A DNA stretch of 64,000 nt from a virus. Its lineage: Duplodnaviria > Heunggongvirae > Uroviricota > Caudoviricetes. Where the stretch lies: IMG/VR virus record IMGVR_UViG_3300028591_000088; one strand, 5' to 3'. This document shows, one piece after another, positions 5,176 through 48,017 of the stretch (within the stretch, counting starts at the first letter, position 1; the number at the start of each line of letters is the position of its first letter). The notes below the pieces were generated by a model. The model was not told the DNA's origin. It was given only the letters and a program-made list of their open reading frames with translations, and did not search any database. Both the position numbers and the translations under genes were made by a program.

Positions 5176-5176
5176 T

Positions 5177-5242: not shown

Positions 5243-5246
5243 AATT

Positions 5247-5834: not shown

Positions 5835-5837
5835 AAT

Positions 5838-7262: not shown

Positions 7263-7272
7263 TAAAAACTTT

Positions 7273-7823: not shown

Positions 7824-7825
7824 AT

Positions 7826-14532: not shown

Positions 14533-14578
14533 AAAGTATAGGGGAGCTCGGTAATCGGGCTCCCCTCTTTTTTTTTTT
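14531..14578. terminator. bidirectional intrinsic terminator between the convergent arms
   Basis: ggggagctcg-gtaat-cgggctcccc hairpin (14541-14565) with a long T-run on the right and an A-run on the left. Confidence 0.9.
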
Positions 14579-17500
14579 ACTATTGGGCTTTCTTCCAAGC
14601 ACTATAAGTATCCTTTCCAGCACGGGCAACTGCGAAATTACCCATAAATGCATCTGGTAAAGTCTTCTTACCCATAGCTACTTTTAAAGCGTCTTGTGCT
14701 ACTTTCATATTAACTTCATACATTGGAGAAGCTGTATTATCTCCTAACCAATCTTTAAAGTTAAGTGGACCTCTAAATGAATCATATGAACGAGAACCTG
14801 CTTTATAGAATATTTCTGCAGCTAAATTAGCAAAAACAGGATTATTCTTCATCTCTTTCTTATAATCAGAATAAGCAGGGTCAAGAACAAATTTAAAGGT
14901 AGTAAACAATAACAACGTAATTAACATATCACTAAGTAACTTAGCAAGACTTGCTCTTACAGTTGGATTAGCTTGTATGTAGTCCTTCATAGCTTGTAAT
15001 CCTCCATCTCTTGAGATATAATATAAATCTCTAATAGTATAAGCAATACCTTGAACTATAGTTGGAACATTCTCATATAAAGGCATACCTGTATCTACAG
15101 AAGTAATACCTCCATCTTCATCTAAGAATAATGGGTTACCAGCTTCATCTACTTTCTATTGTAGATTAGAACGATTAGCAGTGTACTTACCTGGCTTCAT
15201 AAAGTAGTTATTCCAAATACCATTCATCCAAGTTGTATACATACCAAAGAACCACATAAGAGTTGTGTGCTCTCCCATTGACTTTAGCGATTTATCATAC
15301 GCACCATATATATTATCAGATACCTCTTTAATAGCTAAGATTTCTCTATCAGAATAAGGTGCAGGTAGGAAAGTCTCTGCAGTTTCTGGATTCAAATCAA
15401 TTTGTTCCTCAGGATGCTCTGCATTCCATTCACGAGCCTTAGACATATAAAGGGCTTTAGCCTATTTATATTCAGCAGAATCCTTTGAAGTTCCATCTAC
15501 TAAGGCCTTAAACCTCTTATCCTTCTTCCAATTATAGGTGAGGATATCATCATTAAGTTCCCATCCTTCCCAACATCCATCTTTCATACAACGTGCTACA
15601 AATAGAGTCATACGGTTTAAAAAGTCAGGACGTCTAAGAGTAGAATATGCCCAGTTTTTGTAGTTAGTCACACCGCCTCTTCCTATCTTTAGAGATTCCA
15701 TACTAGCAAGGTCTATATTAGATAGACGATATCTAGCTTGAAGGGCACTAAGCATACTAATATTCATTGTATTAGTCATACCGTGTGTAACTACATAAGC
15801 ATAAGCCTAACTAAGAGTCTTAGCATCTATATCAGTGTTAAGTTTAGTTACTGTTCTAGCAAAGTTTTCTTCAAAGCCTTGGAAAACATCACGGAAGAAT
15901 GATATCATATTACCTCCAAGGTTCATAAGAGTTACTTTACTTCTTACGCCTGCTAAAGCTCCAGTAAGTACAGCACCTGTCTCACTCTTAATAGTAGTAT
16001 TAAATACATTAACCTTTAAGAAGTCTCTAATATATTGAATTTCTCTCTTCATTACTTCTGTATTACCAGACTCTTCACCCATTAAGGTAAGTTGGAAAAG
16101 TAATGAACGAGTACCTATCATAAAGTCTTTAAGTTTTTCACATTCTATGGATTTAGATAGATATTCAATAAGAATATTCTCGATATTAGTCTCAAAGAAA
16201 TCAATACCCTAAGCATCAATAAATTCTTGACGAGTTCCTGCTCTATCAGATTCATCACCTATCTAGAACATATTAAATACATGTCCGAGCTTTTCTTTAT
16301 CAGCATTAAGGCCTTTCTTTATAAGTTCTCTTTCCTGTTCGGTTATGTTTTCAATTTGTTCGTCATAATATTGTTTAGGATTCCACATTATTTTCCACAT
16401 ACGTTGAGCTCTTCCCTTCCAAGTAGAAGTTTCTAAGTTCTACATTACTCTTGTAGAAGAAGAAGCTCTCATAAGTGGACACCATAAATATTTATGACCA
16501 CCCGCTCTAGATGCTATAAACTTAGGAATTTCTGGATCATCATAACCTTTAAAGTTTAGGGCGTTGCCTCTATTCCTTATTAAATAGAACTAGTAAAGTG
16601 CTTGTTTTAAGAATTTAGCCTCAGCGGGATCAAGACTTCCGTCTGTCCAAGGATTCTTAAATTTCATAGTTCTTCTGCCCTATTCATCCACTTCAAACAT
16701 CTTTGTAAACAAAGAGTTCATATCTCCTAGAGTAGCATTACGAACTAATCCATAACCCTTAGCATCAAGGAATTCCTTAATAAATCCTCTCATATTCTTA
16801 GCATGATAACGTTCTACTTCAGTAGCAATACTATTATAAGTTTGGGCTAAGTTATCAGTAACAATACGAATATTCTGATTAGGGATATGATTTGTTGTAG
16901 ACATATGTCTATAAATGTCAGTTAATTCCCTCTCATAGTTTAGAGTTTCTCCAGTATAACGGTGATAAGCTTCTGAAAGAGCTCTATAAACACGACACAT
17001 TTGTTGGTCTCTATGTGAACCTAAATGTCCTTCAGAACTTCTTACTATCTGTTCAAAAGTCCAATCAGGAAGTTCCTTATAGAAAGAATCCAACAGTTCT
17101 TTAAGAATTTTAGTCTTTGTATAAGCTTCACCGTTTTCTACAAGACTAGCTAATTGCTAAAATTTCTCTGGAGAATATCTCATCACTTCAGCATCACTTT
17201 TAGATGCTATAAGTAAACTATACTCATAAAGAACAGACTCTAAGGGATCTGTAAATTGGTCAGATTTTAAACTTCTAAAGTTATTAACAAACTCAATTTC
17301 TCCCTAGTCATTAATAGTAGAAACAATTTCTGGAAGATATTTCTATGTAATAGTACTTATAGAGTAATTTCTGGCAGTACCACTATGACTAAGAACTTTA
17401 ACTCTACCTAATTGAACTCCTTCTAAGTCCATTGTAGGAAGAATCTAATTAAGTAATACAATGGCTCTTATAGCTTCAGCATTACCATAATCACCTCTTA

Positions 17501-19223
17501 GATTATTAGTTTGAACATCTGTTTTAAATGCACCTAATATACTATGTCTTCCTTTACCAAAAGGTATTTCAGCATTACAATCAAAAGAAGTTAAAGAAAT
17601 AATATCTAATTGTCCAGTATCATTATTCTACATAAGGATAACATTGTAGTCAAGTAATTCATCACGTAACTTCCACTTATAAACAGGTTTACGATTACCT
17701 TTTGAGTCTACTTGCCAATCTACATCATTAAAGTATGTATCAAGCATATTCTTAATAAAACCTCTAGAACGAGAAAGTCCTTTTAGTTTATCAATAACAT
17801 CAGATTCAGGAACGAATACTCCATGCTCTCCAATCTGATTCATTTTACGAATAGCCTCTTTAAGAGTGTGTACTGTTTGTAGAGTTTCATCTTGAATTTC
17901 TCCAAGATGTTCTACTACAATATTAAGAATATCTTGATTGACATTCTTATTTTTATTTGACTTTGGTCTATAAGACTTACCATCAATTATTACTTCCCAA
18001 CGACCTTTATCATCATTTACTTCTCTAATTACCAGAGGTTCAGCTTCTCCAGCTTCTGGAGCACGTTTAATCATTTCTACAGCTGAACGATGTGTACCTT
18101 CACTACGCATATTAAGTATAGGGAAGATATGTTGGAAAATCTCGTCAGCTCTATCAAAAGTTTCTATAGTTACTCTTGGTATCTCTACATTACTTCTAAT
18201 AAAGTGACGGGCATGTTTATCATACTATTCTAACATATATCCACCACCATAGTTTACAGAGATATTCTAAGGAGCACCAACAACTATCTTATCAATTTCT
18301 CCTCCCTCTTTATAGGTCATATTAACTGGGACAATGTTTAATTCTATGTTCTTAACTGGAATACCATTATAAGCAAGCATCTATTTAAGGAATGCCATAC
18401 CATAATTGTACTTTTTCCATTTGTCTTTAGACCAGTAGTTCATAGATTTTTGTGAAGCCTTAAAATTGTAAATATGTAAAGTTCCACTTGAGTCTACAGA
18501 TAAATAGTCTATATGACCAACTAACTCTTTACCAAGTGCTTCTATTTTAGCTTTAAGTCCTACGTTATTTAGAATAGTTGGACCTACTTGAGTATGATAA
18601 ATATATTGTCTAGCAAAGTTTTCCATCTGACCTTTTAAATCTTCAAGAAGAGCAGTTCTTCCTTCAAAAGGAGTACCTTCAACAGTATCCTATATAGCTG
18701 CTACATAGTCAGAGGAATTAACTTTGGTAGATATTGCCCCATAACCATCCACTATTTTGTGTAAAGTTACAGAGTCCTTTTTAAACTAATCCATATTAGC
18801 TAAGTCTTTATCTACTTCTTCTATAGCTTTCTCTTTCTTAACTCCCTTTTCTATTAAATTATCAATTTCACTTTGTCTGAATTGGTCTCTATCAAAAGGT
18901 CTTACTAATGGTTCTCCATCTATAAGACAAGCTGGATCTTCAATAAATTCCTGATAAGAAAGAGTACTTCCATCTCCTCCAAGTTCATCATCATAAGTAG
19001 ATACTGTACGAGCTGCAGTAATCATATAATCATGCTTGACTTCTCCAATTCTTTTAACTATAGATTCCTTTAAAGGATCTTTAGAGTATACAATATCACT
19101 TATTTTCATTTGCTCATCAGTTTTTATAACTTTGGCAAACTGGTCATCGACATAATCTAATAGCTATTTAAGGGTTATACCTGTCTAATCGGTACCTACT
19201 ATATCATATGTACAATTTTTCAT
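14577..19223 (-). CDS. giant virion/ejection protein A (1548 aa, code 15) with a PD-(D/E)xK-like domain
   Basis: Starts MKNCTYDIVGTD(TAG)TGITLK; eight track fragments share the frame; GHIDYLSVDSSGTLHIYNFK at about 18440-18520; ends KKAQ-TAG-TAA. Confidence 0.85.
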
Positions 19224-21775
19224 TCACAATCTTCTATTATATTTTTCTTTTCAATTTGATCTCTTATCCAAGTATCTTTTCTTCTTTGTACCTGTAATGC
19301 CTCATCCCTTATAAAGTTTATATTGTCTCCTAGGGTTTTAGCTACTTCTGAATTAAATCTTTTCCAGATACCTTCCAAAGAACCATCAAATTCAAGGACA
19401 TTTTTAGCTTTGTCTTTTTTGTCAAAGATTGTATCTGTTACCTTTTTAAGGTCATCATTCTAAGCAAATAAAGAACTTAGTTCATAAGGTAAGTTACCTT
19501 CCATATACTATCCATATAAGTCAGCCACTGTTTCTTCTGCTAAGTCCATAGCATTAGCATTTGGATATCTCTTTACCCTCCTATTATATGCTTTTTGTCC
19601 ATTTTCTGTAGATAAAATCTTTTCTATAAAGTCAAGATAATTTTGTCTATAATCAGGATTAGATTTAAGTACTCCTAATAATAAGTGAGCATACTCGTGA
19701 AAAGCATCTGAAGCTCTAGCTGTAGCACTATTTATATAGATTGTTCCATCCTTAATAAATGCCTTAACTAGATTGATATCCTCAATTCCCATTTCAGTTA
19801 GTTTCTCTTCATTAACTATTTCGACAGGAACTCCAAATTTTTCCTTCATAGTACTTACTATACTACTTAATAATTGTAATACTGGAGTTCTTTTATTATG
19901 TCTCTTCTCAGTAACTGCCGTTTCATCAGTTTCGATAAAACGAATACGATATTTACCTTCATCTACCTTATAAGAAGTACTTACATAATAATATGTAGGT
20001 TGCTTAGTTTTTATATCATTTACAACTGCTTTAATTTTATCATTAACAGTAGTTACTTGTTTTTCTCCTTCTTGAGGTGCAGGATCTTCTCTAGGATATA
20101 TCTTATTTCCAGCTTCATCAGTAGTATTTAATACTCTGTTTATTTCACTCAGAAATATAGTAGCTTTTTCTGCAGTATCTATATCTGCATAAATAGCCTA
20201 TTTAGTAGTATTTAATAAATTAAGACTTTCTATATAATCATAGAAATCTTGGAGAGATTTATTAAGTAAGAAGAATTCTTCTTCCTACATACTTTGAGAA
20301 CGTAGATCTAAGGGCACATCCAAAGCAGAAAATATCGTACCTTCTGGAATAAATGTCTCGCTTAAGAAAGAACGTCCAAGACGAGGATCAACTTTTCCAT
20401 CTGTATATTCCTATTTAAGATTGCTGAAGGCATTTTCTTTTAACTTCTACTATATAAAGTGATTATCAATCCATTCCTAAGCCTCATCGATACTTCCAAA
20501 TCTCCTAGCTTGCAGTTTCTCATTTATAAAATATTTAGTTACATAGTAATAAGTAACAGTTCTGTCTCCAATTTCTTTGGTTTGACTGTATATATGATAT
20601 CCATTTCTATCTTCTTCCTTTGTAAAAGAAGCAACTGTATCATATCCAAATCCATAAGCTGATTCTAAAGTAGGATATCTATCCTCTAAAATAAGAGCTT
20701 TCTTGTCCATATGAACAGGTCTTAAAGCTAGAGGATTTTCATTGGGTTCTAATAAGGAATTAATAGCATTAAATAGAGTAGTCATAGCCCATTGATCTGT
20801 ATCATCCTCAGTATGTCTTGCCAAATATTTAGTTCTCTCCTCTATTAACTTAGCAAGAAAGTCCTTTTCTTCCTCATTGAGATTCTTGAGTTCTGATATA
20901 TATTCAATGGCTTCTCCAGCTTTTTTCTAAAACACTTCTAGCAAAGATTTCTGAGTCGTGAATATATGTGGATAAGCCTGAGAAAGAATAGCATTTAATT
21001 CACTAATTGTAAGAACCTTTTGTCCATACTTATTAGTTGTAAGACGTCTATTAAATTCATTTATAACTGGATTAGTATATCTTCTTTTAGCAGGAGTTCC
21101 TTTAATAGCACCTACTATATATGACATCCATACATACTAAGAAGCTCCATCTATTAAAGATTTATCCTTTTTAAATTCTTTAATATTATTAAGGTATTGT
21201 AAGATTGTCTCTTCTTTAGATAATCCTTGCTTTTCTGCTATCTTATTAAGGGCACCTTTAAGTTCTTCATCAAGAGTAGACTCATATTCTCCACTTAGTA
21301 CTTTCTCTCTAGTTTTTAGATAGTTAGAAAGTTTAACAAGTGAATCTTTATCTCCTCTTACTACGAATATTTCTTTTCCTTTTTTATCTAGAACTCTTCC
21401 CATCACAGGGAATTTAGAAGTAACATCTAGAGTATCAAGTAATAGTATGGGCACGTCTATATCAGGAAACTCTATCTCTGGATAAGTATCCTATATGTAC
21501 TTATAGCTTACATTAGGAACTAGTCCATCTTTTCCACTTATTTTTGCGTAAGTAACTGCAGTTGAAACTGCACTATTATCTTTTAAGTATTGTATAATAC
21601 TGTTCTTAATATCCTACCATTGCCCACTATGTTTAGATATTAATGCTGCTAATCTATCCTAAAAATCCTATGTAGGTAGAGAGCGTTCGCCCTCTACCCC
21701 ATAGAACTCTTCTTCTGGGAATGTGATTCTTAAATCAGTATCCCCAATTTTAAAAGTTATAGTACAATTTTTCAT
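19220..21775 (-). CDS. giant virion/ejection protein B (851 aa, code 15) with a zincin-like metallopeptidase motif
   Basis: Starts MKNCTITFKIG, ends NIIEDCE-TGA; GTIYIN...DAFHEYAHLLLG and downstream AEETVAD. Confidence 0.85.
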
Positions 21776-24700
21776 GCACAGTTAATGTCTAAGAATAATT
21801 TAGCCTATCTCATAAGTTCTGCAATAGCATGTATTGGAGAATTATCTAATTGTTCCTTAGTTCTAGTAAGAATGCTAGAATAAGGCTTTCCTAAAACGAA
21901 GTAAGCTCTATCTAAGAAGAATCTATGTAACTTCTATTCTATACCTTCTCCAGGTATTGCAGGAAGAATATCATCCATCTTTTGGTATCTACCATAGCCT
22001 ACATTTTTATAGTAGACTGGAAGTTTATCTTCATACATAATAACTACTGGATCTTTCTGTCCCTTCAAACTAGATACTACTTTAGCCTAAGAGATAAATA
22101 AGTCCATAGCAGTAAAGTCCATCATAGAATCTATCTCTGCATTAGAATAATCATGTTCTCCAACATACTTCAGATATCTGTTAATTATATTATCACCTTT
22201 ACTATCAAACTCTTTTATAAATCCTTCGAATATCTTAGTAAGACGGTCTGAACCATACTAATTCTTATTAACAATTAAGTTATAAAGAGCAAACCAATCA
22301 GAAAGAGCTACTCCTCCAATTTCATAGTTCTATAATTGATTAAGTCCCTTACTAAATCTAGATAATTGAACTCTAGTATAAGAAGAGTCTGAAGATATAT
22401 TTACATTAGTTTTCCAAATAGGAACATCCCTATCATTACCTCTCATTAATGACATAATAAATGGATTACGACTAATTGCTTCCTTAGTAGCGTCATCCCA
22501 ATCGTCATTAAATGTTCCAGCTTTCAATCCGGGAATTACTACATTTTCAAAATAATATTTAAAAGATGCTATTCCTTCTTCAGAATCCAAAGTAATGAAA
22601 CTATTTTTAACATTTCTTAATGTTCTGTTTCTATCTAAGATAGTACCTTCTACTGGGAATTTGAAGTTTCCATCAACAATAAACTATTGCATCATAAGAG
22701 ATGAAGCAAAACTTAAAATTCTTGGATAGTACTTCTCGTCAATATACAGTTTAGGACATTCTACTTGAATCTTACGTAAACATTCACTTAATATTCTACT
22801 CTTAACAGAGAATTGGTTCACAGTACATTCACCTCCCATTAGAGTAAACATGCTCTTAAAGTGGGGTAGTTTTGGAGCAATAGCAAATATATTTAGAGTA
22901 ACTTTTAGTTTATCATAATACTCTGCTACTCTCTGTTGATACTCCTCATCTTGAGTCCATCTAATAGGATCAAATCTACCTCCTGCTATATCAGCATATC
23001 TATCTTCTGCAGCTTCAATTAATTGTCCATCGGAGTTGACTATCTTCATATCTTTTTCTCTCTTAGTAATTATATTTTTAATATATGCTAAGAAAGCTTC
23101 CAAGTCCTCAGCTTTACCCTTTAGACCTTGGTTAATACTTAGAAGACGTCCGAAAGTACTAAACTCATCAGAACCTTCCATAACATTTTTAAACTCATTA
23201 AGATCTGCTAAAGCTTCGGCTCTTTGTGCAGCAGTTAGATTAGAAGGAATAATACTCTTTAATAAGGACAATCTATCTTTTGATCCTTGTATTTCATTTC
23301 CCTCTTCATCTACGTAAGATTCGGCTTCTTTGCTGCTATCATAGTTCTTAAGATACTTTTCAATAGCACTAATTGCTTCATCTACACGTAATTCTTGTCC
23401 AAGGAATACATTAGGATCTGATAATGAATCTATCCAAGAAACAGCGTTACTAGTCATGAATTTCACAATATCATTAACATTATAACCCATAGTCATCAAG
23501 AATAGATAACATTTTGCTAATTTACTACCTGCATTAATCTTAGCAAGGATAAGCTCTTTAGCATTATCAGTTGCTGCAGAAATCATTTGACTGATAATAA
23601 TATCCACAGGAATCTTAGATTTCAATTTTCCAGATTCTATATACTTAACTAAGTTAGGATCAGCAATACCTTCAGTATTTATATCAGGAAGAGTAGAAGT
23701 AGTTACTTGTCTCATTTGAGAAACACCGTTTACATCAGGTAAACTACGTCCAGCAATTCTGGTAGTAGTAAAGTCAAATCTTACTTGTTCTAGTGCCGAC
23801 ACTGGAGTAGGAAGTACTTCTCCAGCTTCGTTAACTGTATAATCAAATCCAAGTCTAGCAGTCTTATAGACATCATTTAAATGATACATCCACATAAATG
23901 CTCCTTTCTGACCAGTAGCTGATATAGCAATAACATTCTTACCAGTCATGTTCTGGTACTGCATTGTATAGACAGAAAGAGGATTAATAAGAGAAATTTC
24001 TAATGCTTCAGCACCCTTAGGAGAGCTATCTGCAGCCTTTCTTAAATCTTTCATTTCTACAGGTACATATGCATCTGCAACATTTCTAACATTCTAAATA
24101 GTATTCTAAATATGTACAGAAATGAAGTTTCTAAGAGCAGAAGCCTTTAAATCTGCAGGTAGAACAGTTGCATTATGATTATTTAATTGTGCTAGAATTT
24201 CTGGAGTTGAACCTTTAACTTTATTAGTATCTTCTAATTTATTAAGGATTCTAGCATAAGCTAAAATTCTCTGTGATTGAAGTTTACTAATTTCATCTCC
24301 ATTTGGAGAATTCTTTAAGGCTTCATCTGCCTATTTAATAATAGCTACATCATCAGAAATATCTATACCATCAGCAGCTTCTTCAAATACTACTCCATTA
24401 TTTGGAAGAGGTAGATATTCAGAAGCCTTTATAGTTTCTAAACTACTATAATTAAATAGACTACTCCACCCAATATAAGAACCATTATCATCAAAAGCAA
24501 GACCCATTATATAAGCCTTATCAATATCCGTTTTACCTTTTATTTTTCAATAAAAGACTGACTATATCATCACTCATTATTGAGTGCCTCCTACTTCGGG
24601 ATTTTGTTGCCTTTTTATAAATTCTTCTTTAGTATAATTATCTCTTATTTTATAAAGTAATGATGGAACTTGTTCTATATAAGGTCTTACTATAGATATA

Positions 24701-27700
24701 AACTTAGAACAATCTTCTTCACTACTAGAAGCTATAGAAAAAGTATTTTTTCCTTCTGGAAATTTTCTAAACTTAATATTCCATACTTCTAAGAAATAAT
24801 TAATAATAATATTAACAGTTGGTTCGTCCACACAAGTAGCAATTTTGATAGTATGTTGTATAGTACTTCTTTGTTTTGAAGTGTTTACGTTTATACACCC
24901 ATCATCCATATACCAAATTGCTATTCCTTGCGCGTTTAACCAATTTAAAAGCTTCCTAGTAAATGTTTTCTTTGGAATATAAACACTTCTACGAAGAGCT
25001 TTTATAGTAGGATTAATAGATAATTGAGAATAAAGAACTTTTTTACCTTCATTATATCCACATTTAGATATATATTCTTTAATTCCATTTACTTTAAATC
25101 CATAATCTGTTAATAATTTAACTTTCCATTCTAAAAACTCCCTTTGAGATTCAGAATGGCTTAATTTAAATACATAGTTACTAGAGATTGTACCATCTCC
25201 AAGTAACATAGCAATAAGTAAAGATTTCTTTTCTTTACTAATTTTAGCAACAATTTTTCTTTTCATACTACATAAATTTTAAACGTAAAACATATTTGTA
25301 GATGAAAAGTTCCCTACTCCCTTCCGGGATAGTCGATGAACTTTCATCCTTATAAAATTAAATATATAGATAAATTTATCAATTTACTAGTCTATATATA
25401 ATAATTTTATCTAGGATGCTTAGCTGCGGATTGTCCAATTTCTTTACCTTTTTACTTTACCTCAAATAGTTACTTTGAGCCTTTAGATGTATTTCTACTC
25501 TAAATTAGTAGTAAAGAACTCTAAGGAGTTTCCCGCAATTCAAGAGGTTTAATGACTACAATATTATTTATAGTCAGAACCTTGTAACCAGGTCTGCCAG
25601 TGTGATACATAAGCTAAGTTTGAACCTTCTGCAGTATAACCAATCTGTCTCATATTCATAAATGACTGTAATGTCTGAGCAGGAATACGAGAAGCTGTAT
25701 AGTATTGAGAACGTAAGAAAGAGTAGTATCTCTTTTCATTAAGTCTCATCTTTAATGCAGTAGTTCTATCATTTAGAATCTTAGCAATTGAACCTTGGTC
25801 CTTAACTTTTTCAAATTTAATAGTTCCTGTTTCTGCATCATATGATAAGTCAGGTCTAGTAAATTCTGTAGTATTAGGAATCTTACTAAATTGTTCAGAA
25901 ATAGCTTCTAGATAGTTAGAAAGTGTAGCATCATAACCAAAATAAAGTTTCTTTCCATCTTTATCAGTAGAAGAGAAACCTGCTAATAAAGCCTTTACTC
26001 TTTCAAGATTAGATTTCTTTATTTGTTGATTATTAACTGTAAATGCCTCATAAGAATCACATTCATAAATTTCCTTCATTAAATCTTGAACGTAAGTATT
26101 TATTTCATCATTTGTAGCAGTAGGCATTGTTCTTCTAAGTTCATCAATATTTATATTATAAACTTGATGTCTCTTTCCATTAGATTTAACCTCGTGTCTT
26201 GTTACAAATTCTACATATTCTCTTACTCCTCCATCTACATAGGAATACTTATTTTCATTCTTGGTAATTCTTTCTCCAGTAAATTTATCATAGAAGTATT
26301 TACCTTCCTCATTATAAGCAATTCTTGGTCTTCGCATATCTCTACCAATTCTAAATAGAACTTTCTATTCTTTGTTAGTAGCATATACTTCATGTACAAT
26401 ATTAGGATCCTTTACAGCTTTTCTACTTCTATCTTTCCAGTAAGTCCATCTATATGATACATCAGGAACTTCTCCATCCTCATCTGGTTGTGTAGAATCA
26501 AATGTTCTATCTAAAGATATGTAAGTATGATGACCATTAGCTTTGGTCATTATAAAATCATAGAAGTCTGGAGTAACACTTTGATGTACTTGTCTAGTAT
26601 TCTTAGCCTTTTTATTACCCTTTTCAATACCGTTCTTCATAACTTCTATCATAGATTCATCAACGTCTACACCGAAGCGAGATTGATAAATGTTAGACAT
26701 TATAAGTTCGGCAGGAGTATTATTAAGTTCTATAGAATTACCACTCCAAGTGTTCTTATCAAGTTCGTCAAGTAGTTCTTGTGTAGAAGAATACTCTTTA
26801 ACTCCATTAGCTAATTGTCTGTTTATATAGGCTTCTATACGAGCAGCAGCTCCAAGTTTACCATTCTTAACAAGTTTCTTATGGAACTATCTTAGTAAGT
26901 GTATACTATTAAAGATGTTATCAGTTCTCTCAACATCAGTAAGAACTTCTCCCTATTCTTTTTCGCTCCAAACAACAGCTTTTCCTTTATATGTCCACCA
27001 TATTTTGGTTGGAGCCAAGTTACGAGACTTATGGATATTCTTTCTAAATTGGAGAACCTTGACAGGAGCTCCTATTTTATCCTATATAAAGGCTCTAGGA
27101 TCTGCTTTAAACAAGTAATAATCAGAGATAGAATCTAAAGATATATCTTCCCACCATTGTTTACCTTCAGCATCTTGTACTAAAAGTCCAACATTGTCAG
27201 TAGGCATGAACTCTTCAGTATGTAAGTCCCAATCAGGATTTTCTCCTAATCTTTCAGTTACTTTATATTTCCATTTAAGAGCGTTGTAGTCATCAGTTTT
27301 CTTCATAAGATAAGCCTCAACTACAGCCTAATTCCATTGTTCAGTAGAAGTCCATTGTGTTGGAACTTTCTTACCATCAATGTCTTTTAAATTAGCCTCT
27401 TCTTGTGTATATAAAACTAAGTAATATTTATCCTCTGGATCTTCCTTACCTTCTTGTTTTCTTTTCTTGTATTGAGTATACTTTATAGTAGCATCTTTAA
27501 GTACATCTTTAAATTGGTACTGTCTTCCATCTATATCATAAACCATCATAATATTGAATCCAGGAGAAAGCACTGCTCCAAGTCCAGGATACTTTTTACG
27601 AATAGATTTATTAGTAATTATAGAAGCAAAAGTAGAAAGAATATTACTATAGATATTAGCATCGCTAAATGGAATCTTTAACTCATCTAGTTTATGACTA

Positions 27701-30700
27701 TTAGTAAGGTTAAACTTTCTCTTAATTTGATTAATAATAGATTCAGCAAGTCCAGCTTGTCCCCTAGCAGTAGACATATTATTGATAATAGTTCTACCTA
27801 TAATATCATAGAGAGCATCTCTAGTTTCTGGAGTAGGATTCAATTGGTAAGCTTGTATAGCTTCCATTTCTACAGCAGATTCCTCAAGAGCAATTTGTCC
27901 TAAGGCTTTGTAGATACCTTTTACATAACCATGTAGTCTACCTCCAGCATCAAGAGCAGAAATAACCTAAGAGAACTCAGTCATCTCAGCTTCATCAGCT
28001 TCATGGTCAGCATCCATCTGAATACCATAATATTCTGTTCCAAGAGTTATAGTATCAAGTTCCTCATTATTATAGAATCTATCTTCACTATTTCTGTTAC
28101 CTGCACCGTTCTTGATAGCACTATTATTACAAATATAGTCTATCATCAAGGTCTTAAGAGGTTGAGCAAAATGTGTTTGATTAAACTCTCTGGTTTTAGC
28201 TTCTTTTCCAGCCTCAGTAAGTACTGTAACATTATTAATTAGGTTAGCTACAACATAATTAGAAGCCTCAGAGTAATGAAGTTCTCCATCTACTATAGAT
28301 TCACTATTTATACCTCCAAATACTTGATGTGCCTCATATATAGATGACATTGTGTGTAAAGCAGGATTATTTTGCTTTTCAGTAAATAGCATATGATTAC
28401 TATTAGCATCAAAATAATGATACTTTCTAGTAACACCACTACCTAATCCCTGGTCATTTACTCTTATTTCATCTGTCCAGTAAACTCCATCTTCATAGCC
28501 AAAATCTACTATTTTATAATTAGTTCCCTCTGGTCCTTTATAGAATAAATCATTACCTCCAGTTAAATCTGTGAAAGTAATTTCTCCATCAGTTGTATGT
28601 GCAGCCACCTCAAGGATATTACCTTCCAATCCAGGAATAGTAGTCCAAGGTTTATTAGCCATTTTCTTGAACATATTTAACATATTAACTCTTGAACCTA
28701 TGGATTGTTGCATCATATTGTTAGTTATAGTATGTGCAGCAAACTTAACAAGAGAAGAAGTCATATGTTCCTTATCATAATAATGCCAAATAGGCTTTTT
28801 GACAGTACCTACTTCATTTTCTTGAAGTGACCAGTTTTCTAAGATAGATGTAATTGGGTTAATAAATGCAGCACCATCGTGTGAATCTACTGTACCATCA
28901 TCTCCAGTGAAGTTAAATACATCTGCTTGAATATCATTCATAATAGCAAGACGCATTGTTCTTGGAATACCTCTCAAGCTATTTTGAGTATAATATCTCA
29001 TGGTAGCAGGAATAATAACGTTACGTTTCAATTGCGCTCCCTGACCAGCAGATTCTACTTCATACATCTTCTTATCTATAACCTTTTTAACTTTATTTTT
29101 AGTTGAAACGTCAGCAATATTATCAATTAAATCATAAGCCTCAACAAGACTCATACTATCCCAGAATTCTTGAGCATCTAAACCTTTCTAAGTAGCAGTA
29201 ATGTTAATAGCTGCTTGTATATTAGCATCCTAGAAATTAACAAGGTTAGACTTATTATTTAAATCAAGAGCCTTAGTAATTACTTCATTTGGTTTAATTC
29301 CTATTAAATGCTTATTCTTATGGTTTATTTCTGAACCAGTAAGAAGCATACGAAGATTATTTCCAAGTAAACTATGTAGCATAAAGTACTTATCCAATAC
29401 AGGATTAAGTTCTACTGTAGTACCCTCAGGAATTAAATTATGTACAGTAATATCTTCGTCTCCAATTCGAGCTAAAGTAAGAGTTCCATCGCTTTGTATC
29501 CAGTTTTCAGATTCTCCAAATTCATTGAGAGCTTTAACCCAAATATTATCAGGATCTCCCTTTCCTTTAAATTTTCTGATACCTGTGATACTTATCTTAC
29601 TCTTTAATAATTGATTTAAGAATTTTCTTTTCTCGTCATTAAGTCTATCTTTAATACCTTGCTTAGAATAAACTTTAAATGCTTGATGATAAAGAGATTC
29701 ATTAAATGATAAGTATTGTTTGTCGTCACGTACTCTGTGTTTGTTATATCTGAAGTGAGTATCAGCTAGTATTTCACTAGTAACACCTTTACTTTTAGCT
29801 AAAGCTATAAGTTCTTGTTCTGTATAGTTATTAAGAAGTCTATCTATTTTAGATATCATCTATCTAACTATAGCCTCGTTTGTAGAAATAACAAAACCAG
29901 CATCATCAAATTGATATGCCTGAGCATATAAATCTTGCATATCAAATATTTGAGCATAATCTCTAAGTACATTACTTAAGATAGTTTTATAACCCTTACC
30001 AATACTGTTTACATACATTTCTTCTAGTTCAGTATTAGACATTTGAGTTATATCTTTTCCTCCAAATATTGTACTTACCATATAATTCACAAACTTAGTC
30101 TTATCAGAATAAGTAGTTGGTTGAATTATCATATATTTCTGACTACCTTCATTCTCTACTAAAGGAATTAAGAATTTATTAACTATAGAGTGATAGAAAA
30201 GTTCACCCTCAGTCATATTCTTAACTTGTTTTATTGTACCATCAGCTAAGCGTACATCAGTATCAATAACAGTACCTCTAATAGTAGAAGGATTATTCAT
30301 AAATATATTAGAGTCTAGTGGAAAATCTCCCCAAGCAGAGTCTCTTTGATGTTGAGCATCCTTAATAACAGTATGTAAATTACCTCCCATAAAGGAAAGT
30401 CCATAGTTAGGAACGCTATCTCCATCCAAATTCTTTGTATTTGCTTTGGAAATTTCTCCAGACATAATCTATTTAACAGTTACATAGTTATCAACCCAGT
30501 CCTAAGAATAACTTATAGTAATAAGGTCTGGTCCCATAATACTTGGTTCCCAAATAGTTCTCCAATCAGTATCAGTTGGGTCAAGTCCGAGAATAGTATC
30601 TCTATAAACTTTAGTTTCCTTTATAAATTTATCAAATTGACTAAATGTATACTGATTATTTTCTCTAGCCTTAATAAATTGATTATGAATATCCCTAACT

Positions 30701-32676
30701 ACCATACCTCGTACAGCAGTTAAAAGAGCTTCTATTGGAGAACCTTTAAAGTTTCTTTGGAATATATCAAATTCTAAAAGTCCATCCTATGTAGATGTAA
30801 ATGATGTTCCAGTAAAGAAGTCTATAAAAGAAAGTAACTTCATAAAGACATCATCTCCAACACTATTTATAAGATTTTGTCTTTTAGCCTTAGTACTTAT
30901 GTCTTTATTCTGTAATAAAGAAGCGACATCCTCTTCAGCTCCCGTAGCTTTATTCCTAAGTACTACAGTAACTCCTTTTGTTTCTTGTCTCTTAGTAAGA
31001 ATACCGTAAGGATTTTGAACTAAGTCTATACCAATATCCAGAGTATAATCTCCAAAATCAATTGAATACGAACCCGGGCTTGATTTTAAAAATCTATAAG
31101 GATTTGCTAATTCTTCTAGATTCTAATTATTCTTATTAATAGCATTAATCATATCAAACTTTTGCTTATTAGTTTGATATTTCTTTTTAATATTTGTTAC
31201 ATACTTATTATTATTAAAGTCATATGTAGTCTATAAATAAGCCATTTCTATACTAGAAGCTATCTAAGCAGCTAAACTTTCTACAAGAGGATATCTATTA
31301 GCTAAACCATGAGTTCTATTATAAGCAGCCTCAATATTAAATAATGAGTTATTACCATGGTATAGTTGCTCATATACAGCATCAAATACCTTCAACTCGT
31401 AAGGATTAATAACATCCTTTAATAAGAACTTTCTAACAGACTCATATTTATTTATAATACTTAGTATATCCCTTAACTTGTTTACAGGGTCCTAATTAAA
31501 GGTAGTTATAGCATTATAAAGTAACCTTAGATTTTGGTCTGCACCATATAATTGTTGTACCTTTCCAAATAAAGAAGTGAACGCTCCTAAGTAATTAACT
31601 GGGGTTAAATAGGTATCATCTATAGGAATACTCGAAATAAGGAATTTAGAGAAATTACCCATTTCCTTTAGTGCATCACGAACATCTACCTGCCAACCAT
31701 GCACTCTATTTTCAGTGTCCTTACCAAAGCGATACTTGTAGTGTTTTACTCCATCAGCATCTACTTCAATAGGAAATTCTTGATCTTTATTTCCTGTTAT
31801 ATAAGTACCTATAGCTTCTTTAGCTAACTTATCGAAGTAAACAATAGAAAGGTAAGCATTTACAGCTTTATAAAGTCCTTCATCACTATTAGTTTCTCCA
31901 CTAAGACTAGCCTACCATCCTTGTTCTATTTCATCCTCAAGGGTTCCTATTCTTCCTTTATGTATTACTAAATTATAGAATCTATCTAAGGTATTTACAT
32001 AAGTTGCAATAGGTTTATTTTGTCTGAACATAGAATTAGGTAGTCCCTTAGCTAATCCTAAAGAACTTAAATATCTATAAACAATAAGATATTGATTAGC
32101 CATAAACTTTTCTATGTTCTCATTAAGAGTTTTCTGACTATCAACAATAGAACTATCCTTTAAAGTCTGTCCTATTCTAACCACAGTAGCAAGACCTAAC
32201 TCTCTTGTAAAGTGGGTTTTAAATGCTTCTCTAGCTGGAAGATTGTTCACAAAGAACTTGTCAAACATCTTATTAAGACGTTGCGCAGCTATTTCTTCAC
32301 GACTAGCTAATTGTCCATCTATAACTGCAGAAAGGTCAACCTCCTCGTCACGAGTAATTCCTCCTTTAGAGTAAAGTTCCATTCTTACATTTTCTAATAT
32401 TAATTCAGAATCTTTTCCACCCTTTTTAAGATCCAATTCTGGATTGTTTTTATCCGCAGCTTCTAAAATATTGGCTAATTTTCCTGTAAGAGTCATTACA
32501 GAATCCTTAAAGTTTTCAGGGCTTAAGGATTCATCAGCAGATGTACTAAAATTAGTATTGCCATATAAATGCTCCATTAATCCAGTAATTACATCTTCGA
32601 CGTTATGGAGTTCCAGTATTTCTGCTGGAACTCCTACATCGTCAAATTTTCCAAAATTTGGTAATTTACACGTCAT
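21772..32676 (-). CDS. virion RNA polymerase (about 3287 aa, code 15), two exons: 32676-25570 and 24528-21772
   Basis: Spliced junction gives WLQGSDY|DIDKAYIMG (DxDxD); also SRIPAQTLQSFM, DSHDGAAFINP, GIQMDADH; starts MTCKLP, ends LDINCA-TGA. Confidence 0.9.
24529..25569 (-). mobile_element. group I self-splicing intron (1041 nt)
   Basis: The 5' exon ends in U and pairs with the IGS (UGACUAU/GUAGUCA, U-G at the splice site); the last intron base is G. Core-like segments GAAUUGCGGGAAACUCC, AAUCCGCAGCUAAG, GUUCAUCGACUA and GAUAUAGUC are present. Removal keeps the frame. Confidence 0.92.
24577..25266 (-). CDS. intron-encoded LAGLIDADG homing endonuclease (double-motif)
   Basis: LLIAMLLGDGTI and IAIWYMDDG; lies between the R-like and S-like intron elements. 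Confidence 0.9.
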   Translation of the reverse strand: MKRKIVAKISKEKKSLLIAMLLGDGTISSNYVFKLSHSESQREFLEWKVKLLTDYGFKVNGIKEYISKCGYNEGKKVLYSQLSINPTIKALRRSVYIPKKTFTRKLLNWLNAQGIAIWYMDDGCINVNTSKQRSTIQHTIKIATCVDEPTVNIIINYFLEVWNIKFRKFPEGKNTFSIASSSEEDCSKFISIVRPYIEQVPSLLYKIRDNYTKEEFIKRQQNPEVGGTQ

Positions 32677-35600
32677 TTCACACAATCACTCGTATTTAAT
32701 TGATTGATTAGTTCATCTATTATATTTTCCAATAGAACTATATCAGAGTTATCTAAGATTCCTTCTTCATCGAGTTTATTTCTTAAATCTCTCTTAATAC
32801 TCTTTAGATTATCTGCAGAATATACAATACCTTCATTTCCTGACATCCATGCTTTTAGTTCATCACTATCTTCATAGACATCATGACTAGAAACAAAGTC
32901 TTGTATTGCCTTATTTACTTCTTCTCCAGTATAGTTAGTCTTAATCTCCTTTTTATCGTCTGATTTTCTAGCTCCTGGAGCAGTCTTTTCATTAACTATT
33001 ATATCTCCATCATCATAGCGGATTTCATATCTGACACCCTTATCATTTGTGATTGTAAATGATGTACCATCACCACTTGCTTCCTAAGAAACAATATTTC
33101 CAATGTCTGGGTATTTGTCTTTCAAAGTCTAGATACCATTAATATCAACTCCTACTATAAGTTTAGTAAGGTCTCCCTCACCTTTAGAGAATATTTTCTT
33201 GTTAATTTCTTTATCAAGTTTTCTATCTACAAATGTAACTATTTCATCTTCAGAGAATCCATCTAAATGCCATCTTGATGTATCAAGCCCTAAAGACTTA
33301 GCAGCTTCTATTAAAGGAATAGTTTCAGTATGTACCTCTGCTTCTCCTTCGGCTTCAGAATATTCATCAAATGAGAACTCTAGTATTGGATTTCCCGGAA
33401 TTTTATCTATTTTAAATAGTTTTCTATTAGTAGCACAAGGGGCTATCATATCACTAGCTGTTCCTCCATTCTTTAATAATACAGGATCGATAAAGAATCC
33501 GTATTTAAATAAGGCTAGAGTATCTTTCTATTGATTATAATCAAAGTCATTATAATTTGCTTCGAAAGCTACTCCATGGAATATTAAATTAAAGAAGTTA
33601 TCCAGACGGCAGTCGTGATAGTAAGTTTCTCCTTCACGATTTCCTGTTCTGTATGTAAATGGATTCTACCCAATTATATCTGTCTAAGTAACAGATTCTT
33701 GTATAAGTCCTTTTACTTCTTTTCCTCCAATATTTGCCGTTAAGAAGGAATCTAATTCAGCATAATCTATATCTCCTTCTGCTTTTTCGTAGTTAAGATA
33801 AATATGATACTTACCTCTACCCTCAGTATCTTTTTTAGCTCTTTCTGATTCAAATGCATCCTTGCCTTTCAGCATTTTCTTATGCATATAAGAAGCAATT
33901 CTACAAAGAATAAGAGGGAAGGCTTTTACTCTTTCCTAGTTTGGAATAGGAATTACCTTACCATCATCACTTATAGTCAGAGTCTTACCTTTAGATTCAG
34001 ATAACCACTTTTCAGTCTCTTTATAGTTGATTCTTTCATTCTTATTAAGACTGGTAGTATCATAAATTTTATCTACTACATTGGTAAATAAATAGTCCAG
34101 CATTTGGGCATATTGCTCTGCTAAATCTGGATTTATAAATATACCATTTGTATTTTGAGGATCCCAATTTTTAACACCTTTATAATATCTATTACCTTCT
34201 TTTAACCCATAAATACGACGTATGTAAGCTCCAGTTCTATCACTCCAACCCACTCTAAATCTAGGTATATCAAGTCCCTCATTAAAGTCCATAAGAGCAA
34301 TTACCTTCTTCGCTTTGTCCTAATCTGGATAAGATTCTAACCATCTTCTGTATTCAGTATTAGATATTACTGGGTCTTTAGTATCATCAGAACCCTTGCG
34401 TTCAGCTTGTAATTCTTTATATAGTTGTGTATCTAACTTAGCATATTCAATAGTCTATGCACGAGTAATTCCTAGACTATCTTCATGTGCTTTAAGCGCA
34501 TTTAGGAAAGTATTAAGATCTGCTCTGTAATTCCATAGAGAAGCTAGCATACGAATACTCATAGCTTGCAAATTCTATGGGAAGGCTACATCAACATCTT
34601 TATAACTTCTTGAATAAATATCCTTGAATCCTCCTCTATAAAGAGAGTGGAATGATACACCCTCATTATCTAAGACTAACATTCTTACTGCTGCTTTAGA
34701 ATTTCTTCCTGCAGCTCTTTCCTCCTGTTGTTGTATAAACAATTTACCTAGCTGGTCAGGAGATAAAGTATTGTCATTAGATACAAATAATACTGCATGT
34801 CCAACTACTTTCTCAGATATTCCAGGAATACTTTTAGTAATTATATGTATTGGACTTACTACTGAATTACCAGTACGAGCATCAAATTCAGAGGTATCAT
34901 CATATAAATCTTCAAGACGTACACTTCTCTTCTGCTTAGGATCAGGTCTATTCTCTTCATCACCTTCATAATCGAAGTCTCCTTCTCTTAACTATATAAG
35001 TTCAGTACGTCCATTAAATTTAGGTTTATTTATTCTTCTTTCTGTAACAGAACCATTAACTAAGTTATTAAGTTGAATTCTGTAATGTTCAGCCTGAGCA
35101 ATCTATTCTCTCTTTTCTTCCGGAGTTAGTTCAGGATTACTATTAATACCATCAATCCAAGTACCAGGATTAGCAACAGCACCTAAAGTAATAATAACAG
35201 GACCAGAAGGAGTATTGATTCTAGCTTGAATACTTATAACCTTTCCAGGAATAAAATCAAGTTTATCCTATTTAAGAGTAGTTAGTCCAGTTAAATTATG
35301 AACGTCACTTCTATCTTCTGCAACTAGCCAGAATTCTGCTTTCTTTAGAGCATCTTTAGGAAGTTGTCTTCTTAAAGTAGCTGGAATATCATAAACATCA
35401 ATATCATGGTCGTAAAGATAAAGACTCTTAATGTAGTTAAGTTCTCTAACTCTTTGTCTTATTTCGTCTGTACCAACTGCTATAGGTTTATCTGGATTTA
35501 GCATTCCAAATATACCTAAGTCACGTACAGGACCACGAGTATTAACTTTATATGTCTTTCCATCCTTAGTTACATTACCTATAAAGGCAACATTACCGTA

Positions 35601-38600
35601 GGCTCTATATCCAACAGGATTTAGTTTTTCTCCTTCTAAAAGTGGAACAGCCTCAGCTTCCTTTTTCTCTTCTTCAGTATTATTTTCTTCTCCTGGGTCT
35701 TCTAACTCTTCTTCCTCTTCTTCCTCTTCAGTCTCTTCTTCCTTCTTGGGTTCTTCCGCAGGTTTAATACTTTCTAGTAAACCTTCTATATAAGAAGTTC
35801 TTCCATCTATAAAGTCTTGAACTACTTCAGGAGAAAGTCTCTCATACTTAGTAGTATAATCTTCCTTTATAGGGTTAACTATATTAGTAAGCTGATTGTC
35901 AAGTACTATACTACCTCTTCTACTTCTGGAAATCATAGTATAAAGATCTCTTAACATATTAAGAGTTGCTTCCATACCACTTTCAAATTTCATCTTTCCA
36001 TCAGCAGCCTTAGCTAAGGCACCTCCCCAGTCAGAGTCAACTATTACATAGTCGAATTCTCTACCTTGAACAGCATCCTTATCTAAAGCAGTAAATACAG
36101 CTCCTGGATTAAGACTAGACTGAATAAAATTAATCCTATCCTTATTAGTACCTATATAAGCTACACTACCTGTTAGCTTAGAAAGATCTTCTGCAGATAA
36201 GGTAGATACTACTTTATCTCCTTCTAAGGAAGTTTCATTTTCAAAATAACTAAGTGGAAGTTTGTTCTTGAGAATTTGTTTTATCTAATCAAAAGTAGCA
36301 TCCTTAGTTGCATCTGATGAATTTCTAATTCTATCCATCATAGAAACTAACTGATTCTAATTTTGTACCTTCCAAATACTTTCATTTCTTAGAGAGAAAT
36401 TAAGTCTTGGAGTTCTAAATGCTAAAACAGCTTCTCTATTTATATTATATTCTTTACCTCTCTGATTTTCATCACCAAGTAAAGTAATACGTACACCAGC
36501 ACGTTTAGCCCATTCAGATATTACTTGTAAGTCTAATAAATCGACATGAGTTGTTTCGTCAAGAACTAAGTGTTTAGGTGCATCTTTAGTAATAAAATCT
36601 TCATCCTTTTTGGTAAGAATTTTAGGCTTCCATCCATCTAGTCCTTTACCGGTAGTGAATTTCTTCTCACCTTTATAGATAGATTTAATTAGCTCTTCTA
36701 CACTAAATGCCTTAGCCTTAGGAGCTATTTCTTTTAATCCATCTATCTAAGTACTAGTGGGACCTACAATCCAAGTGTCTTCGTCGTCATTAACAAGACT
36801 CTTAGCCTCAACACTTGTCTTACCGCCTCCTCCTAATCCAGTAACTATTTCAGTATTCCAAAGTACTGGAACATCATATCCTTTAGTAGCAGCTAATTCC
36901 TACAATACTTCTAAAGCAGTGTTAACTACTTGTGGATTTGCTTGTAATGCCCAACCTAGTTGCATACCAGGTAACTGAGTAGCAAGAGGCGCTATATTAG
37001 GATTATTCTTTATAAAGTCGAGTTCTTTTCTTAACTGTTCTGTTGGATCTAAAGCTATTAAAGATATAAGATAATTAAACTTATCATATGCAGTTAAATC
37101 TTTAAGTTCCTCATCAATATTAGAAGTAATACCGCTTAATAGAGCATCATCCTAATTAATATGGGTAACTAAATCTTTAATAATAGTTTTTAAATCCTTA
37201 CCTTCAGCAACAGCCTTTTTAACATTCTCATGGAATTGTCTTTCAAAATGGAATAAAGCATTTTCTTGATTAGGATCAATTACAGAGTCTTTTAATAACT
37301 CATGTTCAGTCATACTTGCTGACATAAATCCTAGTCTAGCTGTACTTAAAGCTTCGGAAGCCCTTCTTAAGCTAGCAGTACTATTAGCTTGATTTGCTCT
37401 TGATAATGTAATCCATTCATCAATTTCTTGAGCATATCCATTTAAAGCCATAATAAGCTATCCTCCAATTTTCTCATCCATTTCAAATAATGGTTGGAAA
37501 TTCTTGAAGAACTCTGAACCACCTTGTCTTCCTATATGGTCATTATAAAACTTATTAACTGCTTTATTGTAAGTCATTCCATCTTGTAAGTTGGACTCAC
37601 GAGATGAGGCTGCTACCATAGCAGTAACTATATTTATAAGTTTTTTAGCATCTTCCAAGTATTTGATTTGGTCTCCAGAAAGAATAAAGTCTGTAGATTT
37701 CTCTTTATCCATAAATTGTTGATGTATGGATTCAAGGGCTTTCTCTACTTCTACTGCAGAACTGCCAATCTTTGGAGCTAATTCTTTAACAAGTTCAATA
37801 GCTGGACTTTCCTCAACAGATAATCTTTCCTCTAAATCTCTAGCAGCTTGTAAATCTGAATCTGAATTAAATTCAAGATTAAGTTTAGTAAGCTTTGGCT
37901 CTAATGCCTTAAGATCAGATTCTACTTGTGATTTTACTAAAGAGTCAAAATAATCTTGATTCCAAGCATCATAAGTCTTAGCTTCTAATCCATCAAGTTC
38001 GTCTTTTAATTCTGCTTTTTTATCTGGATCGGCTTCTTCCATATAAGCAGCTTGTAGTTCTTCATACCGAGCAATATCTTGTAATAAGTCAAAGTCTCCC
38101 TCCATTCCAGTAAAATCTTCGAACATAAAGCCTAGTTGCTCAGTTAAAGAATAATCTTCATATCCCGTTCTATCCAGATTTTCAAGGGCTTCTTTTAAAG
38201 TAAATTTTGGTTTAGAAGATAATTTAGCATAGAATTTAGTAAGACCTGTTATATCAGTACTTCCTAGATAATCTTCAAACTATTGCTCTATTTGCTTTCC
38301 ATATTTAACTTCTAAAGACTCTTTGACTTTATTTACAAGTTCATCATAGTTCTCAGCATTATTAAGTAATTCCTTATTAATAGAAGTACCTACAATACGA
38401 GCTATAAGTCTATTTTTAATTTGATTTTGTGTTTCTCCTAAGTAAGCCATTAGGTAACGACGAGTACTTGGATCTATGAATGTAGCAGGTTTAGACATTC
38501 CTGTAGCTGGATCCCAATCAAATGTTTTAGCCTCATCCAAAACTCTTTGTAATTTCTGGATTTTTTGACGAGCATTAAGTTCAGCCACAGTAATAGCTCT

Positions 38601-47553: not shown

Positions 47554-47560
47554 ATTTATA

Positions 47561-47595
47561 TATAAAAATAGGGCATACAGAAAAACTGCACGCCC
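47561..47595 (-). terminator. intrinsic terminator after gene G
   Basis: GGGCGUGCAG-UUUUU-CUGUAUGCCC followed by UAUUUUU on the minus strand. Confidence 0.8.
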
Positions 47596-47605
47596 TAATT
47601 AGTTA

Positions 47606-47929: not shown

Positions 47930-48017
47930 AGATTAAATAGTTTAATTAAACTCTTAAGTACAGTGAATATATATATTTGAACATCTATTTGCAAGTTAGT
48001 TAAGTCTTTTTAACAAG

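Follow-up and report, generated by a model that had tools for sequence, protein, structure and literature searches.

How a podophage transports megadaltons of protein through its narrow tail, and in which order, is an open question. It arises at a block of four giant late genes, encoding D, a predicted virion RNA polymerase (RNAP), B and A, in a 64,000-nucleotide (nt) stretch of viral DNA (Caudoviricetes; IMG/VR record IMGVR_UViG_3300028591_000088), which in its full length is referred to as the window. Crassviruses, to which the window belongs, are the most abundant human gut phages, and their protein cargo is invisible in the only virion structure. We found that cysteines lie close to those chain ends of the block that face another chain, and that this pattern is a deep, order-wide rule. 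On balance, we favor the reading that the separate giant cargo chains are joined head to tail, most likely by disulfides, into one threadable chain that takes the place of a single giant polypeptide.

Under the standard code, the minus strand of the window between 14.5 and 58 kb consists of short open reading frames (ORFs). Reading TAG as glutamine turns them into a row of very large genes, and reading TGA as tryptophan brought no improvement of the minus-strand ORFs in the window. The window is a TAG-recoded crAss-like phage, with up to 33 in-frame TAG codons per gene among the late minus-strand genes (14577-58711) and nearly none in the plus-strand early ORFs (1-14532). ARAGORN found no tRNA, and thus no suppressor tRNA, in the window, and the source of TAG suppression was not located within it. 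The coding parts of the block are listed below from the first chain to the last (C-terminal sequences are given up to the stop codon).

32673..41564, minus strand: gene D, 2963 amino acids (aa), first chain; N-terminus MKKND without Cys; C-terminus ...SDCVK with Cys codon 32684-32682; 4 Cys in total
25570..32676, minus strand: predicted virion RNA polymerase, exon 1; ATG (32676-32674) overlapping the TGA of D; N-terminus MTCK with Cys3 codon 32670-32668; ends ...WLQGSDY
21772..24528, minus strand: predicted virion RNA polymerase, exon 2; starts DIDKAYIMG; C-terminus ...DINCA with Cys codon 21780-21778
19220..21775, minus strand: gene B, 851 aa with exactly 2 Cys; N-terminus MKNCT (Cys4 codon 21766-21764); C-terminus ...EDCE (Cys850 codon 19228-19226)
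14577..19223, minus strand: gene A, 1548 aa, last chain; N-terminus MKNCT (Cys4 codon 19214-19212); free C-terminus ...KKAQQ without Cys

After intron removal the polymerase comprises 3287 aa, and D, RNAP, B and A together 8649 aa. A sequence-only reading of the window had pointed to paired cysteines in the termini SDCVK, MTCK, INCA, MKNCT, EDCE and again MKNCT, all of which are present once TAG is read as glutamine. The free ends, namely the N-terminus of D and the C-terminus of A, are devoid of Cys in the translations, as had been stated, and the four proteins are indeed otherwise Cys-poor, with 22 Cys in 8649 aa (0.25%) compared to 2.2% in the early ORFs and 1.1% in the other virion ORFs of the window. 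The span originally given for the arrangement, 19220-32690, had to be extended, as it covers the junctions only and the four genes reach 14577-41564; a second correction concerns the intron in the polymerase gene. Given the Cys frequency of the block itself, a Cys would turn up by chance in each of the six internal 10-residue end segments with a probability of ~2.5e-10.

We compared the block in 15 genomes, i.e. the window, MT835470, MT835492, crAss001, phi14:2, p-crAssphage, crAss002, cr8_1, cr109_1, cr60_1, cr118_1, cr7_1, cr1_1, cr108_1, and Fpv1. These represent the Steigviridae, the Intestiviridae, the Suoliviridae, and the unclassified clade of the window, in addition to the unclassified Flavobacterium phage Fpv1. 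Of the internal chain ends, 48/48 have a Cys no more than nine residues away, compared to 0/30 of the free ends (simple Fisher p ~5e-16 for the first ten genomes, a value that ignores shared ancestry). Five metagenomic contexts contributed another 20/20 internal ends with Cys and 0/4 free ends. Every junction carries a Cys pair in MT835470 and MT835492 (27-29% identity in the polymerase). In phage phi14:2, the 5398 residues of the three chains include four Cys, each of them terminal (chain ends ...NTIC and ...QECK); exactly two of them belong to its crystallised polymerase, at residues 3 and 2179 of 2180. The rule is equally strict in the phages of aerobic marine and fish-pathogen hosts. The terminal cysteines are thus conserved in orthologues, a point on which the sequence-only reading had staked itself, and they are kept across the order and beyond, only at ends facing another chain. 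We found no natural loss of one Cys partner in the sample; the three apparent exceptions, crAss002 gp33 and the B homologues P0020 and P0055, are all start-codon miscalls. In crAss002 (NC_055828), gp33 is annotated 32 codons too early, and the true start is MSC at residues 33-35 (13088-13183).

The comparison also bears on whether the cysteines are a mere by-product of a nucleotide signal for translational coupling, or of chance. The three window junctions (D/RNAP, RNAP/B, and B/A) are all ATGA overlaps that share the pattern TGTG..ATGA..TGTA, and all six terminal Cys codons are TGT, which would suit a coupling signal. However, other ATGA junctions of the window (41561 and 43450) come without Cys. 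Furthermore, the pairs are kept where crAss001 gp47 is encoded on the opposite strand from gp50 and gp49, where partner genes are separated by 131 nt (p-crAssphage) or ~270 nt (crAss002), where genes start with GTG or do not overlap at the junction, and where the proteins share 18-38% identity. Chance has a probability of about 1e-10 in the window alone. Based on the comparative data, in particular the opposite strands in crAss001 and the spacers in p-crAssphage and crAss002, we rejected both a DNA or coupling motif and chance, which have practically no likelihood left. By the same token, the ATGA coupling that the sequence-only reading had built upon is present at 3/3 window junctions but not conserved, since partners lie at least 131 nt apart or on opposite strands in relatives.

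In order to follow single chains over larger distances, we analyzed the families of B and A. B homologues at 50-65% identity keep both C4 and C850, and a profile search of 1.8 billion cluster representatives yielded 122 full-length members of the B family. The C-terminal Cys lies within the last four residues in 122/122 of these, and the N-terminal one within the first eight residues in 120/122 as annotated. In the two remaining members, P0020 and P0055, a canonical MKC or (M)SKC start is present in frame, so that both Cys occur in 122/122. The genes of P0020 and P0055 had been called from a downstream ATG, and their true starts are an overlapping ATG and a GTG. An alignment of 31 members that share 18-38% identity has just 11 invariant columns, namely those of C4 and C850, the HExxH residues, E747 and E748, and four others. 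Hence, both terminal Cys of B are as invariant as its putative HExxH active site among these distant homologues. The A family mirrors the position of A as the last chain, with an N-terminal Cys at position 3-10 in 70/72 homologues (the other two are truncated gene calls) and a Cys within 36 residues of the C-terminus in 0/72.

Splits and fusions of the chains provide a further line of evidence. Across the genomes compared, the number of Cys pairs equals the number of chains minus one, as summarized here.

2 chains, 1 pair: D and an RNAP-A fusion; Intestiviridae (p-crAssphage, crAss002, cr8_1)
2 chains, 1 pair: a D-RNAP fusion and A; Suoliviridae, Fpv1, and cr108_1
3 chains, 2 pairs: crAss001 and phi14:2
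4 chains, 3 pairs: the window and MT835470
5 chains, 4 pairs: MT835492

The D of MT835492 is split into two colinear halves with the new ends ...EACKVIA and MQSNC..., and the unsplit D proteins of the window and MT835470, which are colinear with each other and with these halves, have no Cys anywhere near the split point. Within the Steigviridae, D and RNAP are split with a pair in crAss001 and phi14:2 and fused in cr108_1, with no Cys at the fusion point. The intron breaks in the catalytic motif of the polymerase (the window, MT835470, and cr108_1) are likewise free of Cys. This would fit a need for links at breaks of the polypeptide only, since introns are repaired at the RNA level. The terminal-Cys rule also serves as an annotation aid, by which three start codons were corrected and true chain breaks can be told from intron breaks. 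Taken together, conservation, restriction to internal ends, and a Cys number that tracks the breaks lend strong support, at the level of sequence comparison, to head-to-tail pairing in the order D-RNAP-B-A. The interpretation of the sequence-only reading is supported in part, namely in the pairing order of its proposed chain of ~8,650 residues, whereas the ATGA coupling invoked along with it does not extend to relatives.

These observations also help to judge two other ways in which the cysteines might be used. Each terminal Cys could act alone, i.e. bind a common partner (the portal, the capsid interior or other cargo), form homodimers or be modified, leaving the chains unjoined. A lone near-C-terminal Cys without an obvious head-to-tail partner does exist in p-crAssphage gp47 and gp48 and in crAss002 gp30. 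These are smaller virion proteins upstream of the block in the Intestiviridae; gp47 has its sole Cys at -2 (...QSCR), and the other two share ...RCGG.... However, cysteines acting alone would leave unexplained why the N-terminus of the first chain and the C-terminus of the last are empty (0/30 and 0/72), why C- and N-terminal Cys are equal in number, and why a split gains one of each, and we regard this explanation as very unlikely. Alternatively, RNAP and B could each close on themselves by an intramolecular N-to-C bond, with the C-terminus of D bonding the N-terminus of A. With at least three chains, this arrangement has the same Cys count as a linear chain. Two-chain genomes, in contrast, contain no protein with both Cys, and the bonds available to them, from D to RNAP+A in p-crAssphage, crAss002, and cr8_1 and from D+RNAP to A in Fpv1 and the Suoliviridae, are those of the linear chain. 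For this reason we rejected intramolecular closure, which appears scarcely credible.

What could the paired ends be for? In the arrangement that we favor, a bond, most likely a disulfide, would connect the near-terminal Cys of one chain with the Cys found at position 3-5 in the next, and the product would be a linear thread D-RNAP-B-A of about 8,650 residues. With every Cys no more than 9 residues from a chain end, the joined polymer would have only short side stubs, and it could be threaded unfolded through the portal and the channel of the tail as one polypeptide would be. The link would thereby do the job of the peptide bond in relatives that have the same modules fused. We infer both the disulfide chemistry and the role in ejection from sequence comparison; the bond would form in the assembled particle, and its reduction in the cytoplasm of the host would release the polymerase along with the zincin-like B and with A, the bearer of the nuclease domain.

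The sequences around the cysteines suggest how the ends might be brought together. B family proteins start with C-x-Phi-x-Phi-x-Phi-G-G, where Phi is hydrophobic (+2, +4, and +6 in 88-100% of sequences), and end with I-x-E-x-C, while the preceding polymerase ends with Phi-x-Phi-x-Phi-N-C in the clade of the window. The terminal profiles of B correspond to amphipathic strands in register with the Cys. In the AlphaFold2 (AF2) model of B, Cys4 starts a confident hairpin (strands 3-10 and 13-20), and Cys850 is located on a low-confidence, unstructured free tail. The N-terminus of A, C-x-Y-x-Phi-x-G (Tyr in 69/70), is modeled by AF2 mostly as coil. The two Cys may be positioned by an N-terminal beta-strand C-x-Phi-x-Phi-x-Phi-G in the downstream chain together with a Phi-x-Phi-x-Phi-N-C or I-x-E-x-C tail that ends the upstream one. 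Docking of the C-terminal strand beside the first strand of the next chain, with the S-S bond replacing the hairpin turn, would fit both profiles and models. At its most specific, the proposal describes a "split polyprotein", in which 2-5 giant products are stitched by single disulfides, at sites taken by a beta-hairpin turn in the fused versions, into a thread of 5,400-8,800 residues that is ejected as a unit and then cut by host thiol reductants, without a protease, into polymerase, protease-like module, and nuclease; to this detailed version we give tentative credence, slightly short of belief.

The strongest competitor keeps the chains paired head to tail and dispenses with the disulfide: the two Cys might bridge a metal (Zn, Fe or Cu), or the ends might form a non-covalent strand-docking interface. 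All comparative results for head-to-tail pairing fit this explanation equally well. It is favored by the carboxylate and His residues beside the Cys, i.e. Glu at -2 in 95/123 B C-termini, Asp as the commonest residue at +1 in B, and the ends ...KHCK... and ...IHCI... that face CPN in the Suoliviridae, as well as by the anaerobic hosts. Two thiolates alone would make a weak site, however, the neighboring residues vary across families (phi14:2 has ...NTIC and ...QECK), the pattern is just as strict in the phages of aerobic marine and fish-pathogen hosts, and the same type of virion is known to use disulfides (PMC10172136). Overall, a metal bridge or simple docking seems unlikely to us, if clearly less so than the alternatives discussed above. 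As an observation on these ends, Cys-Pro-Asn is conserved at the start of the last chain in the Suoliviridae and cr108_1 (MxxCPN; cr7_1 has Cys-Pro-Tyr instead), and His-Cys-Lys/Ile often closes the chain before it; the CPN and His-Cys ends could represent a family-specific docking motif with a possible metal ligand.

The disulfide reading draws support from the inter-subunit disulfides documented in the crAss001 virion, and crAss001 gp47, gp49, and gp50 have been identified as virion cargo by mass spectrometry (PMC10172136). Several points weigh against it. The counts given above are inflated by shared ancestry, and the independent gains and losses that we identified are few, comprising a single split and two kinds of fusion (D+RNAP and RNAP+A). 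The cargo is unresolved in the crAss001 maps (PMC10172136), and we found in the literature no published structure or non-reducing gel of the cargo and no chemical evidence for S-S bonds. The cytoplasm in which virions assemble is reducing, and the hosts are mostly anaerobes of the gut. DsbA, DsbB or VKOR were not found in the control genome of Bacteroides thetaiotaomicron, so that no host enzyme is evident that would make the bond. Finally, the residues beside the Cys, such as the Glu of B and the His-Cys of several Suoliviridae, suit a metal site as well.

A thioredoxin-like protein is encoded among the early genes beside the cargo block in p-crAssphage (gp39/gp37), cr8_1 (gp04), and cr108_1 (gp046). 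Such proteins could take part in making or breaking the proposed bonds, or may simply work for ribonucleotide reductase. The window, which covers part of the genome only, yielded none.

If the link is real, it would account for the packaging of several giant proteins in a fixed proportion and their ejection in a fixed order, and for the freedom with which the block has been split and fused in evolution. It would also explain why ejected proteins that avoid Cys elsewhere keep exactly these. The Cys map alone would then give the chain order in the thread for any crass-like genome.

The closest known counterparts of the block lie in the Crassvirales, namely gp47/gp50/gp49 of crAss001 (PMC10172136) and gp65/gp66/gp67 of phi14:2 (GenBank gp078/gp077/gp076; virion RNA polymerase PDB 6VR4; bioRxiv 10.1101/2020.03.07.982082). 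Both phages share with the window the placement of the block behind the tail and cargo genes, the catalytic motif, and the terminal-Cys rule. They differ in having three chains; the window has four, with the zincin module as a separate B after RNAP, an intron in the catalytic motif, and TAG recoding. Their proteins are virion-packaged according to mass spectrometry. Neither the crAss001 atlas (PMC10172136) nor the preprint on the phi14:2 polymerase (bioRxiv 10.1101/2020.03.07.982082) mentions the terminal cysteines, and we found no description of the pattern or the link in the full-text literature, a search that left subscription journals largely outside.

The virion disulfides of crAss001 join the gp57 dimer, the tail hub to the ring, and R1 to R2 (PMC10172136). 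As S-S staples that covalently connect separate polypeptides in a particle of the same kind, they resemble the proposed bonds, but they are seen in density and hold a rigid shell and tail, whereas the proposed bonds would join mobile ejected proteins end to end. Another comparison is offered by the ejection operon of N4-like phages (Schitoviridae), which consists of the virion RNA polymerase (N4 gp50, DEV gp71) with gp72 and gp73 and whose products show a near-total loss of Cys that has been attributed to passage through the periplasm (PMC11445570). Here too, the capsid stores a giant RNA polymerase that leaves before the DNA does, and Cys is strongly suppressed. However, the N4-like polymerase is a single chain of ~3,400-3,500 aa, and the ejected proteins are essentially Cys-free, with no terminal Cys, while crassvirus cargo consists of 2-5 chains with Cys at each break; it is because N4-like ejected proteins have lost nearly all Cys that the crassvirus termini stand out.

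In two-chain AB toxins, an unfolded cargo chain tethered by one disulfide crosses a narrow channel and is released by cytosolic reduction. There the chains arise by proteolytic nicking of one polypeptide, whereas the proposed thread would consist of up to five separate gene products; the systems share no homology. Fused versions are found in other crass-like phages, where Fpv1 gp33 (4401 aa), cr118_1 gp14 (4946 aa), and p-crAssphage gp44 (4070 aa) are fused cargo polyproteins with the same modules in the same order, held together by a peptide bond instead of a Cys pair and without Cys at the fusion points. A Cys-linked chain would be their functional equivalent. Release of the modules from the fused polyproteins, if it takes place, would require proteolysis, as has been proposed (bioRxiv 10.1101/2020.03.07.982082).

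The polymerase gene of the window deserves separate mention, as it forms two ORFs under any code and is interrupted by an insert of ~1041 nt with the following features.

24529..25569, minus strand: probable group I intron, ~1041 nt with approximate boundaries; splits the catalytic motif between GSDY and DIDKAY; no flanking Cys, which makes this break an internal control
24577..25266, minus strand: intron-encoded LAGLIDADG homing endonuclease ORF, 229 aa (PF03161, E=1.1e-22)

Two matches to RF00028 flank the LAGLIDADG ORF (25546-25317 and 24641-24538, minus strand), with 22.3 and 20.7 bits, which is below the gathering score of 50. Joining ...GSDY to DIDKAY... restores the motif that is contiguous in MT835492 (GADYDIDKAYVMG). 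The restored sequence conforms to the DFDxD-type catalytic motif G-S/A-D-F/Y-D-I/V-D-K-x-Y of the crystallised phi14:2 polymerase, crAss001 gp50, and p-crAssphage. A phmmer search of the window RNAP against PDB sequences (including 6VR4) returned nothing at E<=1, and the best BLASTP match to crAss001 gp50 beyond the motif had an E of 0.011, i.e. no pairwise similarity; the same lack of similarity outside the motif applies to 6VR4. Pfam and PHROGs gave no match for D, RNAP, B or A. Because these searches found nothing, the motif is the only direct evidence for the identity of the polymerase. Its late-module position after the Cys-free cargo genes and beside giant partners agrees with the gene order of relatives, and on the basis of motif, size, and synteny the gene is predicted to encode a crAss-type virion RNA polymerase. 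Packaging into the virion and activity on phage DNA are known only for the polymerases of phi14:2 and crAss001 (PMC10172136; bioRxiv 10.1101/2020.03.07.982082). We further observed that the catalytic sequence is interrupted at or beside the same codons, between GSD(Y/F) and DIDK, in the window, in MT835470 (about 18940-19977), and in cr108_1 (14406-14695). The latter, which belongs to another family than the window, has an insert of ~290 nt without an ORF, and its exons are annotated as the separate genes gp054 and gp053.

The remaining chains allow some functional prediction. In B, H693, E694, and H697 of the HExxH motif and E747 and E748, ~50 residues downstream, are invariant in the 31 sequences at 18-38% identity, which indicates a domain that is probably gluzincin-like. 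The AF2 model of B has a predicted local distance difference test score (pLDDT) of 77.5. Foldseek against the PDB gave no match at E<=0.001; the weak top matches (MATCAP, anthrax lethal factor, and IRAP) are zincins. The same motif is carried by other chains in other lineages: it lies close to the C-terminus in crAss001 gp47 and in p-crAssphage gp45, and toward the end of the fused gp33 in Fpv1. This location in different chains by lineage suggests that modules of the thread have been shuffled between chains.

The N-terminal domain of A (residues 1-320) is modeled with a RecB/Cas4-like PD-(D/E)XK nuclease fold (AF2 pLDDT 84), with Foldseek matches to AdnA, AddA/B, Exo5, RecE, and a Cas4-family protein (E from 2e-4, probability 1.00). 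D239, K255, and K268 are invariant, the Cys cluster present in some of these nucleases is missing from the domain, and PF12705 is weakly matched in 4/29 A members. Judging from this modeled fold, the last chain of the thread may deliver a nuclease.

Upstream of D, the late strand continues with a further group of genes.

41561..50190, minus strand: four ORFs of 630, 1367, 197, and 535 aa, 2729 aa in total with zero Cys

These ORFs are outside the Cys chain. In relatives, the corresponding place ahead of the block is taken by Cys-free proteins of ~600 aa, and in crAss001 by the cargo proteins gp45 and gp46. The ~600-aa proteins are Cys-free in phi14:2, Fpv1, cr118_1, cr1_1, cr109_1, cr60_1, and cr108_1, in parallel to the published Cys suppression in N4-like ejection proteins. 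At the other end of the block, a GC-rich hairpin after an A-run at ~14540-14576 (minus strand) directly follows the stop codon of A, where the minus- and plus-strand gene blocks converge, and is probably a terminator.

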